Assembly: GCA_964016885.1 (NCBI GenBank)
Contig: OZ024745.1
Coordinates: 51,522,001-51,586,000 of the forward strand
Direction of reading: 5' to 3'
DNA length: 64,000 bases
Origin: Eledone cirrhosa
Lineage: Eukaryota
The stretch's first letter is position 1. Each line of letters opens with the position of its first letter. This document shows, piece after piece, positions 8,941-57,420 of the stretch. The position numbers were made by a program, and so were the translations under genes. Below the pieces are notes generated by a model. That model searched no databases. It was not told the DNA's origin and worked only from the letters and a program-made list of their open reading frames with translations.

Positions 8941-9580
8941 ATATATACAGACATGTATACAGACGTACAGAAGTATGTATATATATATATACATATATAT
9001 ATGTGTGCATGTATGTATATATATATATATACATACTACTGTACGTCTGTATACATGTATGGATGTACGTATACATACTTATATTTAAGTAACAGCCGTA
9101 CTTAGAGTGAGAAATCAAATTTCGTTTCATTTTTTCCGTTTATCGTTTTCGGTACCTCGGCCGATTAACTCACTCGATATGCACATTAGGCTGTTCAGCC
9201 GTTAATATGCATAAGGAAAGTATATACTTTCAGACGTTCAATCATCTGGCAGGAAGGTATATGTTGCTGACGATAGCTAATAAGCTTAAAACTAGTACAG
9301 CATTCCTTTGTCAGTGTTGAACAAATGAGCAAAGATGGTTGCTAGACACTGTACGGCTTAATTCGGGATGTTTGTTTACAAACACACCAAGCATTATAAT
9401 AAATGTTCGGTGAATCCATACGTACATATATATATGTGTGCATGTATGTATATATATATATATATATACACATACTACTGAACGTCTGTATACATGTATG
9501 TATGTCCGTATACATACCTATTTTTAAGTAGCAGCCGTACTAAGAGTGAGAAATAAAATTTCGTTTCATTTTTTCCGTTT
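8941..9580 (+). mobile_element. HHR family B non-coding repeat, ~1.4 tandem units (period ~433 nt), with a short 5' inversion
   Basis: gtgtgcatgtatg...tttccgttt occurs at 9003 and 9436. 8950-8985 is an inverted copy of ~9025-9060. Homologous to 39057-39965 and 56693-57420. Confidence 0.8.
9261..9303 (+). ncRNA. Hammerhead ribozyme family B, G12A decayed copy
   Basis: AUGUUG-CUGACGA-U-AGC(UAAUAA)GCU-U-aAA-ACUAGU-A-CAGCAU; 6-bp stem I, but GAAA has become AAAA. Confidence 0.7.
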
Positions 9581-9634
9581 ATATATATATATATATATAT
9601 ATATATATATATATATATATATATATATATATAT

Positions 9635-9995
9635 AGGGATAACAAGTTATCGTTATAGGTAATCCACTTAGAGGTTGTGAGTACTCTGCGTCGTTTAACG
9701 TACGGCTTTTTTTGACTCAACAAGTTGCTTCCATAGTTATGCAGCGAGTTCGCGGTAATTTGTATTCAGGTTATACATGGAGTAATAATAGTTAAAGAAT
9801 GAAGATTAACATGGTTGGCTGTACATATCTACATGCTCTGATGTGTTGACCATAGGGGAATAATGTATTGGAGATCGAATATCGCAACATCAAACGATTA
9901 GCGAACTCTAGACCCACATGATCAACGAAACAATTGTCAGCACTTTAAATAAAGCCCTTATTGTACAACCAACCATGTTAATCTTCATTCTTCAT
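9635..9995. mobile_element. ORF-less PLE family C pseudo-LTR pair in inverted arrangement, within (TA)n
   Basis: 9635-9825 is homologous to 28538-28740. The ~31-bp segment aagaatgaagattaacatggttggctgtaca (9795-9825) is inverted at 9962-9992. An HHR lies in the + arm. Confidence 0.75.
9834..9942 (+). ncRNA. Hammerhead ribozyme family C with ~82-nt stem II domain
   Basis: UGCU-CUGAUGu-GUUGA...UCAAC-GAA-AC(AAUU)GU-C-AGCA; this copy carries an A9U change. Confidence 0.7.
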
Positions 9996-11435
9996 ATATA
10001 TATATATATATATATATATATGTATATATATATATATATATATATATATATATATATATGTATATATGAGCAAAATGATTGAAAAGATATGTTCTTTTAA
10101 TTAAATGCATATAATGTTAATATATATATTTTACTTTTGTTTGTGATTCTTTAGACTGCATCTATACAAATCTATACAAACGAAATGAAATAAAAGTGTG
10201 TAATATTGTATTTCAATACGTTGATTGTTGTAGAAATTGATTCCACCATATTTCTAATTGCAAAAATGATGCAAAGTTAAGAAATTGCCAACTTAACACA
10301 TAAAACTAAATATATAATTAAAATGAAGTTATCTCTAATCTAATATGTGTAATACATACATGCATACACACATACACACAAACACATACATATATATATA
10401 TATATATGGGGTGGTGGTGGGTGGTGGATGTGTGAGTGTGTGTGTGTGTGTGTGTGTGTGTGTGTGTGTGTGTGTGTGTGTGTGTGTGTGTGTTTGTTTG
10501 TCGGAGTATGTTTGGATGTGTGAGAGAGAGAGAGAGTGCGTTTTGTATTTCAGTCTTGTATTCTTTGACGGAGAAGAAAATAAGACGGAAATTTATTTGT
10601 TGTTACAATGAAGTCCTATTTACGTTATCAATTTTATATTCTATCGCAGCAGACCATCGAACGTACGTATAGACACATGTCTGAAAATATAGTCGATAAA
10701 TATACTTAATTCATATTTTTTGTTACAAATAGGTAATAGAAATTTATAAAGAAAATTATTTAACAAAAAAAGGAATCAGCATATTTGAATAGATGTCCAT
10801 TAGAGAAATCTATTGAACAGTGATTTCTATGCTATTGGCAGAATAATTGATTTCGCGACAATGGTTTAAAATTAATGTTGCCCTTTACTTATTGATCTAT
10901 TTACTTTTTATGTGCTTGGTATCAGACATCTATCAATAGTAGAATTATCAAGACTACAAAACGAATATAATACATTGAAACACACTAGCTTTGAATAATC
11001 AAATTGAATATCCTCTCTTTATCTAATTCTTCTCCTCTCACACTCTTTTGCTATTTGTTTTTTGACTCGACAAAAAGGAAAACGCACACATTCGCGCGCA
11101 CAGACACATGATCAAGTAAACAAATTGATGAAATAGACCCAATTTATGATTGTCTAAATACCAAGATTCTGTTTATTCGAACACACCAGAATTTATCACT
11201 GTAAGATTTAGGATATTACTGAGGTTAGTTATGGAGAAAGGCGTAATAAGCTTCCTGCTTTAAATATTCATCGTGTCAAATATTTATATTTTTTACATTG
11301 CCAGCGGCAGCATGCTGTTCGGATTGTAATATTCTATGGATGAAATCACAGCTGAAATATGTTTTATTAGTACTTTATAAACAAAACATTGCAATATGTG
11401 TCATAATGAACATTGATTATGTCAGATTATTTCCT

Positions 11436-11620
11436 TGGATTGGCAGTATCGGTAGAGGGTCGGACGCCATGCTTTGCAGCACAGTTACGTCCCTTTACCG
11501 ACTGAGTTCAAATCCCGCCGAGGTTAACTTTGCCTTTCATCCTTACGGGGTCGATAAAATAAAGTACCAGTAATACACTGGAATAATTGCTGGCCTTGTT
11601 CCAAAAGTAGAAACAATTAT
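11436..11620 (+). mobile_element. tRNA-derived SINE with Nin/Deu-like core
   Basis: A-box-like TGGCAGTATCGG, B-box GAGTTCAAATCC, core gcctttcatccttacggggtcgataaaataaagtacc. There are 13 copies in the window. Confidence 0.9.
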
Positions 11621-11759
11621 TTCCTAAGAAGTTTTATAGCAGCATATGCGTATTAAAGTCCACGGGATTACACCTAAATTTAAGAAATATTTCCTTCAAT
11701 ATATGGAATAATTACATTTTCAAAAGGATGCCTCGTATTCATTCACCTTTGGTGAACAT

Positions 11760-55285: not shown

Positions 55286-55416
55286 GGAGAACATGATATG
55301 AAGGCTAAACAAACACTTGTTGATAGTGCAGTTTTAAATCAACATATCATATGATATGTTGATTTAAAACTGCACTATCAACAAGTGTTTTTTTTAGCCT
55401 TCATATCATGTTCTCC

Positions 55417-55487
55417 TGTTTTATCTGATGAAAACACAAATATTATTGTTTGATGATGTTTGTTTTTGAAATGCGCATAATAAAATA
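55417..55487 (+). ncRNA. Hammerhead ribozyme family A (right arm)
   Basis: UGUUUUAU-CUGAUGA-AAAC-ACAAAUAUUAU(UGUUUG)AUGAUGUUUGU-UUUU-GAA-AU(GCGC)AU-A-AUAAAAUA: 8-bp stem I, ~14-bp stem II, palindromic stem III, AUA site. Confidence 0.8.
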
Positions 55488-55914
55488 TATTGAACTCCTT
55501 TAACCATCTTTTGATCTTATATTATGCATACTCCAGTCCCACAAACTGTAGAGTGCTTCTTATCCGATATCTGCATTGCTTTATTGTACTACAATAAAAC
55601 TCACCTCCTACATATATATATATATATATAGATATAATGTATATATATATATATATATATATATATATATATATATATATATATATATATATATATATAT
55701 ATATATATATATATATATATATATATATATATATATAATATGTAAGAGGTGTCTATAAGTATACTTAAATATATACTTGTGTATATCAATCCAATTGATA
55801 TACACAAGTATATATTTAAGTATACTTATAGACAACTCTTACATATTATATATATATATATATATAAGTATATTTAAATATACTCTATATTCTATAAGTA
55901 TACTTAAATATATA

Positions 55915-56690
55915 CAACAATAGACAAACTATCTGGGTCTCTCCTCCCTTCTCACTGTACGTTAAAACCAATGTAGGAAAGAAATTTCTAGTCCTCTTAG
56001 ATAGACACTTTCCCATAGGTCATAAACACCGCTCTAGCTTTAACCGACACAAAGTTAAACTAGGATACTCCTGCGCTAAGAACATGAAGGCCCACATCAC
56101 CAGCAGCTCTAGGAGCAACACCCCACCAGGGTGCTCTTGCCGTAAGCCTGATGCTTGCCCCCTTCAACAGCAATGCAATACACCAGCTGTAATTTGTGAA
56201 GCTGTGGTCACTTCCAACCGACCAAACGAACAACAGGAGGTCAAATCCTATGTGGGCATGGCGGGGGACCGATTTAAGGAACGTTTCCTGAACCACCAGC
56301 CTACCTTCAGTTAACCAGAGAGACGTTCATCCACGAAACTCGCGAGCCATATATGGTCCCTCAAGGACTCAAGCATAGACTACTCCACTCAATGGAAAGC
56401 CATCACTAAGTCCAAGCCATACGCAAGGGAAAATCCGACGTGTGGCTCATGTATTGACGAACGAATAACTATTCTAAAGATATTACGCAATAGTGATTGT
56501 CTAAACAGAGATGGAATTTTTCACACGTTGTCCACACGTTGCCAAACACCTATTGCATAACTACAAGGCTCCGGACTGATTCTTTGTAATTTTATTTTCA
56601 ACCTAGAAACTTTTCGGACTTTCGCAGTTATCTCCCTTACACCTTTCTGACGCAGTCTAGTATTGTCTGTGTGAATGGACCGGGTTTCTG
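55915..56690 (+). mobile_element. Penelope-like element fragment (linker + GIY-YIG)
   Basis: IWVSPPFSLYVKTNVGKKFL..RHFP, CSCRKPDACPLQQQC, SYVGMAGDRFKERF; premature stop at 56312. Closely related to copy 2. Confidence 0.88.
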
Positions 56691-56692
56691 CG

Positions 56693-57420
56693 CAGATGGT
56701 TGAACGTCTGAAAGTATATACTTTCCTTATGCATATTAACGGCTGAGCAGCCTAATTTGCATATCGAGTGAGTTCAGTTGGCCGGCACACCGAAAACGAT
56801 AAATGGAATAGAATGAAACGAAATTTCATTTCTCACTCTTAGTACGGCACTTACTTAAATGTAAATATGTATGTATATGTACATACAAATATGTATTCCA
56901 TCGTACAGTAGTATGTATATATATACATACATGCACATATATATATATATATATATATATATGCACGTATCGGTTTACCAAACATTTCTTATAATGCTCG
57001 TTTTTTTTGTTTGTAAACAAACAAACAGCCCGAATTAGGCCGTACAGTGTTTAGGCAACCACGTCACCTTTTTGTTCAACACTGACAGAGGAACGATATA
57101 CTAGTTTCAAGCTTATTAGCTATCGTCAGCATCGTATACCTTCCTGCCAGATGGTTGAACCTCTAAAAGTATATACTTTCCTTATGCATATTAACGGCAG
57201 AGCAGCGTAATTTGCATATCGAGTGAGTTCAGTCGGCCGGGCACACCGAAAACGATAAATGGAATAGAATAAAACGAAATTTTATTTCTCACTCTTAGTA
57301 CGCACTTACTTAAATGTAAATATGTATGTATGTATGTATACGTCAATACATATATGTATACAGACGTACAGTAGTATGTATATATATACATACATGCACA
57401 CATCGGTTTACCGAACATTT
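56693..57420 (-). mobile_element. HHR family B locus, ~1.6 tandem units (period ~455 nt)
   Basis: cagatggttgaac occurs at 56693 and 57148; reverse complement of the 9 kb and 39 kb units. Confidence 0.82.
57093..57135 (-). ncRNA. Hammerhead ribozyme family B, intact core
   Basis: ACGAUG-CUGACGA-U-AGC(UAAUAA)GCU-U-GAA-ACUAGU-A-UAUCGU: 6-bp stem I, palindromic ACUAGU, GUA site. Confidence 0.82.

Follow-up and report, generated by a model that had tools for sequence, protein, structure and literature searches.

Family B of Eledone cirrhosa: a hammerhead-bearing repeat very probably mobilised by a Penelope-type enzyme and probably copied from a circular RNA

A stretch of 64,000 nucleotides (nt) from the genome of Eledone cirrhosa (assembly GCA_964016885.1, contig OZ024745.1, positions 51,522,001 to 51,586,000; hereafter the window) carries three copies of a short non-coding repeat, here called family B, in which a hammerhead ribozyme motif can be recognised. 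Analysis of these copies and of others fetched from the genome (loci with L numbers) suggests that family B works like a further metazoan retrozyme without long terminal repeats (LTRs), an element class that is already known. Its insertions have fixed 3' ends, paired long and short arms and TA flanks, which, together with what has been published on Penelope-like elements (PLEs), argue strongly for mobilisation by a PLE protein. The reading that is favoured here is that a PLE-type enzyme inserted this retrozyme into (TA)n sequence from both sides of a cut, the template probably being a circular monomer.

It had been proposed from the window alone (the sequence-only reading) that three loci, here placed at 8942-9582, 39057-39965 and 56693-57438 (loci 1, 2 and 3), belong to one dispersed family with a repeat of about 440 nt and no open reading frame (ORF), and this has been borne out. 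The unit measures 455 nt at locus 3 and 419-464 nt across 31 complete monomers, and the loci are overlapped only by stop-to-stop frames of 101-123 amino acids (aa), partly over TA repeats. A 31-nt core has 10,046 exact matches in the 3.0-Gb genome and its reversed control has none; thus, family B is a real repeat far beyond chance. For a 26-nt motif close to the 3' end the count is 18,773 matches, and 0 for its control. Arms of 2-9 units are found, as are larger arrays, with no long ORF. The further claim that each locus is a head-to-tail tandem holds for locus 3 (about 1.6 units) and for the 1.35-unit main arm of locus 1, but in locus 1 a short inverted arm comes first, and locus 2 consists of an inverted arm and a plus arm with a deletion. 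A sister family (L208-L237, e.g. L224) has a 466-nt unit with 83% identity to subfamily B, a long 3' end as in family B and longer arrays; it makes up the majority of the first 100 among 12,593 matches to a variant hammerhead pattern.

The sample of copies combines the top-ranking hits of DNA searches with the first 100 contig C1 places in two pattern searches. Unit coordinates are those of a real 429-nt unit of L102, in which the hammerhead core lies at 124-154 and cleavage is predicted after 154. Sets chosen by similarity or core pattern are skewed to long, well-preserved copies, and the least biased sample is a set of 64 arms anchored at the 3' end. The census of ends leaves out 27 duplicate loci, the window's own included; 39 of 110 loci (duplicates and large arrays) were dropped from multi-lap sampling, and L061 and L338 from the test of changes shared between laps. 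Some analyses also excluded arms that are cut at an edge or lack a canonical 3' end.

When the ends of the copies are plotted on the monomer, as the sequence-only reading had suggested, two fixed 3' sites and variable 5' ends emerge. Among 211 arms of at least 100 nt, 93 end at 420-429 (77 exactly at 429; the long site), 82 at 360-375 (the short site) and 36 elsewhere. Some 62 nt separate the two sites, at which the arms mostly end in (TA)n, and a TA flank accompanies 199 of 250 canonical 3' ends versus 15 of 58 other ends. The 5' ends are scattered over the unit and peak in just two places, a palindrome at 230-239 and a TA run at 280-289, both internal. That the copies are circularly permuted at either end, from which copying around a circle had first been argued, is consequently rejected: 175 of the 211 arms end at one of two 3' sites, which would be fixed starts, and only the stops vary, as truncations at the 5' end. 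The 'different start points' ascribed to the window loci survive for the 5' ends, whereas the 3' ends of loci 1 and 2 fall at the family's two fixed sites.

The insertions are often two-armed. Head-to-head pairs number 95 in 209 loci, 59 with both arms canonical and 36 with a truncated arm, and tail-to-tail adjacency was seen in three cases in the same loci. Of the canonical pairs, 56 combine a long with a short arm, two are short plus short and one is long plus long (p=1.2e-13); locus 2 of the window is itself a head-to-head long-plus-short pair. Family B therefore displays the traits of a PLE derivative, namely two fixed 3' ends, a tail at one end, 5' truncation, inverted arms and a microsatellite target. 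The tail of PLEs is often at one end only, and inverted 5' copies occur in them (PMC8557442); the tail has also been mapped to two internal start sites of reverse transcription (PMC11167929). In this genome, the family PLE4 (L118-L136) likewise ends 3' at two points, which lie about 66 nt from each other and both lead into microsatellite. From these footprints it is very probable that family B is a PLE-mobilised retrozyme.

The hammerhead was assigned by a descriptor scan and a census of stem pairs. Helix I has 6 bp, helix II has 3 bp and a U-U at its base, and helix III is palindromic, with 1-2 bp, a layout that corresponds to the canonical metazoan type I motif working as a dimer (PMC4209133). 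Rfam returned no hammerhead hit among the matches listed for the loci, nor for locus 3 alone, but only microRNA and small nucleolar RNA noise driven by TA sequence. Stem pairs are retained in 95-99% of 172-192 copies, which is partly an effect of selection by core pattern; among copies not chosen by core pattern, 252 of 321 motifs are intact. At stem I pair 121:157, 176 copies include 74 with A-U, 73 with U-G and 22 with G-U, the pair types differing by sublineage. In the window, stem I had been described as varying between copies while staying paired. This is so at loci 1 and 3 but not at locus 2, where ACGAUA/CACCAU, read from the sequence and missed by the descriptor scan, forms three of six pairs. 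Because stem I is broken at locus 2 and AAAA replaces GAAA at locus 1, the motif is intact only at locus 3. Circular folds of three of three monomers, with 25 shuffles each, gave z scores of -5.8 to -8.3, values that TA palindromes inflate. Family B thus has the sequence traits of a metazoan non-LTR retrozyme: a type I hammerhead in each unit, short non-coding tandem units with no LTR, and a highly self-paired monomer.

Although the argument from permuted ends fails, the proposal of reverse transcription around a circle draws indirect evidence from the crossing of the cleavage site, the identity of laps and the A>G changes that laps share. Of the 64 arms in the 3'-anchored set, 49 run through the predicted cleavage site and 21 are longer than one unit. 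There is no pile-up of 5' ends at this site (one of 50 arms stops within 10 nt), and unit 150-160 holds 5 of 255 5' ends where 6.5 are expected. Indel scars are similarly scarce, with four in about 479 crossings, and 151-158 falls below the median of 35 other windows of the unit. Given this seamless crossing with no excess of stops or indels, a cut linear monomer is unlikely to have been the sole template.

Divergence is 0.032 between successive laps (288/8977) and 0.035 between sister arms (170/4890), compared with 0.059 between loci of one subfamily. At 29 lineage sites, discordance is 21/855 for laps and 10/437 for arms versus 45.8% for loci, and both arms and all laps of an insertion come from one sublineage, with L102 and L064 as exceptions. 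On the sense strand, A>G changes (338/25,719) outnumber T>C changes (195/26,614; p=4.5e-11; 170 vs 127 after masking). Among private changes in 140 multi-lap arms, A>G and T>C stand at 17 vs 4 when all laps carry the change and at 124 vs 147 when one lap does (p=0.0025); with simple repeats masked, the counts are 10 vs 2 and 68 vs 81 (p=0.015). In L056, both laps repeat three A>G changes; in L079 they repeat two, of which one recurs in the other arm. Such a lap-shared excess is predicted by repeated copying of the same edited nucleotides, and it points to a circular template as a moderately probable one. Strongly A>G-mutated copies were also encountered (L167, L199, L097), some with changes inside the hammerhead core; in the arms of L167, A>G vs T>C is 24 vs 5 and 21 vs 3.

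It could be argued that the same two-site priming by a PLE enzyme took place on a linear RNA, read through from a tandem donor that was young and homogeneous and left uncut, with the hammerhead mostly a passenger and no circle formed. Long B arrays could act as donors, and near-identical donor units would also yield seamless crossing and lap identity. In addition, unprocessed RNA was the dominant substrate of the anole PLE, whose hammerhead mutants inserted normally (PMC11167929), and a weak helix III predicts poor cleavage (PMC4209133). However, the excess of A>G in single laps that independent editing of the units should then give is absent (the 124 vs 147 above), though private hyper-mutated copies do exist; no lap-specific alleles are seen among 195 and 178 positions (lowest p=0.012, uncorrected); and stem I pairing has been kept by way of three pair types, with the great share of intact motifs noted above. 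This explanation is consequently considered rather unlikely. It is less likely still that a hammerhead-cut linear monomer was used by an enzyme that jumps from its 5' end to its 3' end, making laps with no covalent circle. End-to-end jumping is known of R2-type enzymes, and it would likewise repeat edits from lap to lap and could account for the sublineage switches of L102 and L064. Yet the L102 switch maps to unit 220-396 rather than to 154/155, and the cleavage site shows neither a pile-up of 5' ends nor indel scars.

As had been noted, loci 1 and 3 do have PLE coding fragments directly beside them, oriented against the main arm. They are best read as separate insertions into common (TA)n targets and not as a cognate partner. 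At locus 1, the inverted arm joins the 5'-truncated end of PLE1, and the boundary of the main arm is blurred by the TA palindrome of the unit; locus 3 is a tail-to-tail junction at which B and PLE4 both miss their 3' ends, that of B having been lost where it meets the truncated PLE4 3' untranslated region (UTR). A chimeric co-insertion of PLE and B at locus 1 was considered and rejected, as PLE1 and the B main arm each have their own long end and B also has its own short inverted arm. Junctions in L357 (PLE2) and in L057 and L379 (PLE5) were likewise discarded as linkage and attributed instead to deletion between neighbours and inverted duplication. In L379, an inverted duplication at 577-7501, of 94-98% identity, copies a head-to-head PLE5|B junction.

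The sequence-only reading had called for a search for a cognate autonomous PLE, and had held that its own view would fall if all copies shared a fixed 3' end and traced to the ordinary pseudo-LTR (pLTR) of one such element. The first half of this description fits, since the 3' ends are fixed at two sites and the 5' ends are ordinary truncations; the second half does not, as B is the terminal repeat of none of the five families examined. That family B represents ordinary pLTR remnants of one autonomous PLE, with tandems arising by partial-tandem insertion and later DNA duplication, is very improbable: fixed 3' ends, a tail, inversions and TA targeting are indeed ordinary PLE traits (PMC8557442), Xenopus retrozymes resemble pLTRs (10.64898/2026.07.22.740005) and the five families are drawn from many (58,584 first-look candidates), but no PLE coding sequence was seen running in sense directly into the 5' end of B in L002-L116, B is not the 3' UTR in 38 other PLE1 and PLE4 copies (only two weak 50-bit TA matches), 29 PLE2 copies or 28 PLE5 copies, and the similarity of B to the UTRs of PLE1-4 is unconvincing (best scores of 35 and 31 vs shuffle maxima of 33 and 22-28). 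Extended B copies continue into further B units, and PLE1 and PLE4 possess their own 3' UTRs. B lies near PLE2 in 3 of 29 loci, of which the two inspected are separate insertions, and near PLE5 in 1 of 28; neither is the parent.

Several observations weigh against a PLE-type enzyme on a circular monomer. Arrays also grow at the DNA level, as indicated by the period-2 array L061 and by arrays of 10-35 kb, and where a rare change is present in two of at least three laps, these laps are neighbours in 45 cases and not in 9 (538 further changes are in single laps). Because DNA-level growth contributes, lap number alone is not a count of laps of reverse transcription. The lap-shared A>G changes may derive from unsampled donor lineages (203 loci were compared of many thousands), and L080, which is two different insertions, supplies 2 of the 17 A>G and 2 of the 4 T>C changes. 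Multi-lap loci were picked by similarity, whereby heavily edited ones were excluded. Other strand asymmetries are present (G>A 279 vs C>T 186, C>G 55 vs G>C 38), and transcription-linked DNA mutation can likewise favour A>G. The arms of L167 have 18 A>G changes in common and differ at 9, and sublineages switch between laps in L102 and L064; thus, not every insertion represents one molecule. Furthermore, L012, L329 and L347 depart from the long-plus-short rule, none of the five PLE families examined shows a sequence link to B, and in vitro a PLE took uncleaved RNA and the hammerhead was dispensable (PMC11167929). Large satellite-like B arrays were recorded at C1:70.055-70.077, C4:351.90-351.94, C12:20.40-20.43 and C2:313.29-313.30 Mb, some with higher-order spacing.

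In the model that is preferred, loci with two or more hammerheads would be transcribed, and the motif, with its palindromic helix III of 1-2 bp, would cleave as a dimer. A host ligase would then circularise the monomer, and the RNA would sometimes undergo adenosine-to-inosine (A-to-I) editing. Using one DNA end, a PLE protein would start reverse transcription at 429, and using the other, at about 367; the complementary DNAs would vary in length, with a median near 0.9 unit and a maximum of several laps, and would then be joined to each other. Some long arrays would later be extended by DNA-level duplication. A more specific version, offered tentatively and with some doubt, has a PLE protein dimer on one circular, sometimes A-to-I-edited RNA, with two strand-dedicated start sites and the subunits rolling round it.

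Family B is like the metazoan non-LTR retrozymes (PMC7229834; 10.64898/2026.07.22.740005) in its non-coding, few-hundred-nt unit of low G+C with one type I hammerhead, its range from monomers to multimers, its thousands of copies, its self-paired fold and the PLEs found alongside. Its unit is slightly longer than those of PMC7229834 (about 170-400 nt), and expression and circles, which those papers show, are predictions for family B. PLE mobilisation has been proposed in both papers, and reverse transcription on circles in PMC7229834; the portions of the two that were consulted contain no insertion-end analysis, long-plus-short arms or lap-shared edits, and the life-cycle model in supplementary figure S9 of PMC7229834 may bear on novelty. 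In titles and the beginnings of abstracts in the open-access literature, no report of family B or of the long-plus-short rule surfaced. The weak palindromic helix III with a predicted dimer recalls the newt satellite 2 and axolotl retrozymes, and the basal U-U mismatch of helix II is that of HHR_Amex2 (PMC7229834). Those units have 330-350 nt, and their cleavage and circles were measured (PMC7229834); the likeness to B is one of description. Eight of nine Xenopus retrozyme dimers did not cleave (10.64898/2026.07.22.740005).

With PLEs (PMC8557442; PMC11167929), family B shares two fixed 3' sites, a one-end tail, 5' truncation, an inverted 5' arm, partial tandems, (TA)n targets and a hammerhead in the repeat. 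It differs from them in having no ORF and in the length of the tail, about 62 nt versus 30-40 in PLEs. In vitro, PLE start sites are alike on both strands (PMC11167929), whereas in 56 of 59 pairs the two arms of B do not end at the same site. MRC1 and other non-autonomous Chlamys elements (PMC8557442) likewise derive from PLEs, bear pLTRs and insert head to tail in multiple copies. They resemble an autonomous family at the 3' end and mostly lack hammerheads, whereas B has a hammerhead and no parent among the families examined.

The PLEs of the window were identified by motifs read from translations and compared with those in PMC8557442; among 13 ORF fragments of the window, Pfam recognised neither a reverse transcriptase nor a GIY-YIG family. 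They bear the CxCX5C linker, and PLE2 also the DKT motif, which are traits of the TA-targeting Hydra clade. An intact Hydra-like ORF family is present, as PLE2 copies have open frames of 714-715 aa. The 3' UTR of PLE2 is 2 kb long and microsatellite-rich, with two hammerhead-like motifs, and PLE4 (L118-L136) carries a hammerhead-like motif of its own. Coordinates are collected in Table 1, together with those of other repeats.

Table 1. Family B loci and neighbouring features, in window coordinates
Feature	Position	Strand	Description
Locus 1, short inverted left arm	8942..8989	-	unit about 310-353, cut before the short site
Locus 1, main arm	8990..9582	+	subfamily A; 1.35 units; long 3' site (429), then (TA)n
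Locus 1, type I hammerhead	9261..9303	+	stem I AUGUUG/CAGCAU; GAAA to AAAA; predicted inactive
Locus 2, left arm	39057..39302	-	subfamily B; long 3' end; internal tail deletion; faces (TA)n
Locus 2, right arm	39303..39965	+	unit 7-92, deletion, 240-429-369 (1.3 units); short 3' site
Locus 2, hammerhead	39692..39734	+	core intact; stem I 3/6 pairs; one stem II mismatch
Locus 3	56693..57438	-	subfamily B; about 1.6 units; 5' end in (TA)n
Locus 3, type I hammerhead	57093..57135	-	intact; stem I ACGAUG/UAUCGU; palindromic helix III; predicted cleavage after 57099
PLE1, neighbour outside family B	6220..8940	-	Hydra-like; 5'-truncated; frameshifted; own 3' UTR ends in (TA)n
PLE2	22880-27300	-	young, Hydra-like; also L349-L377 and L380; 95-98% protein identity among top hits
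PLE3	52470-54015		further frameshifted Hydra-like PLE fragment
PLE4, neighbour outside family B	55916..56692	+	Hydra-like endonuclease end; without last ~190 nt of own 3' UTR
Second hammerhead family	55190-55530		two motifs back to back as an inverted pair, at 55277 on the minus and at 55425 on the plus strand
Abundant repeat of about 185 nt	11426-11622, 12432-12545, 15650-16120, 21129-21468		flanks many fetched loci
TA-flanked palindromic family	55740-55915, 57560-57700, 51340-51470, 52400-52470		about 110-150 nt

The return of retrozymes to DNA and the formation of the PLE tail and inverted repeat are tied together by the countable genomic footprints of family B. It supplies genomic evidence for a copying step that had been proposed and makes this step countable and testable: the template is small and defined, two start sites for it are predicted, and Hydra-like PLE ORFs exist in intact form. 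Should the dimer-on-circle version prove true, the genome would preserve, in fossil form, both rolling-circle reverse transcription and the edits copied with it, and two-ended priming would also account for the PLE tail and the inverted pLTR.

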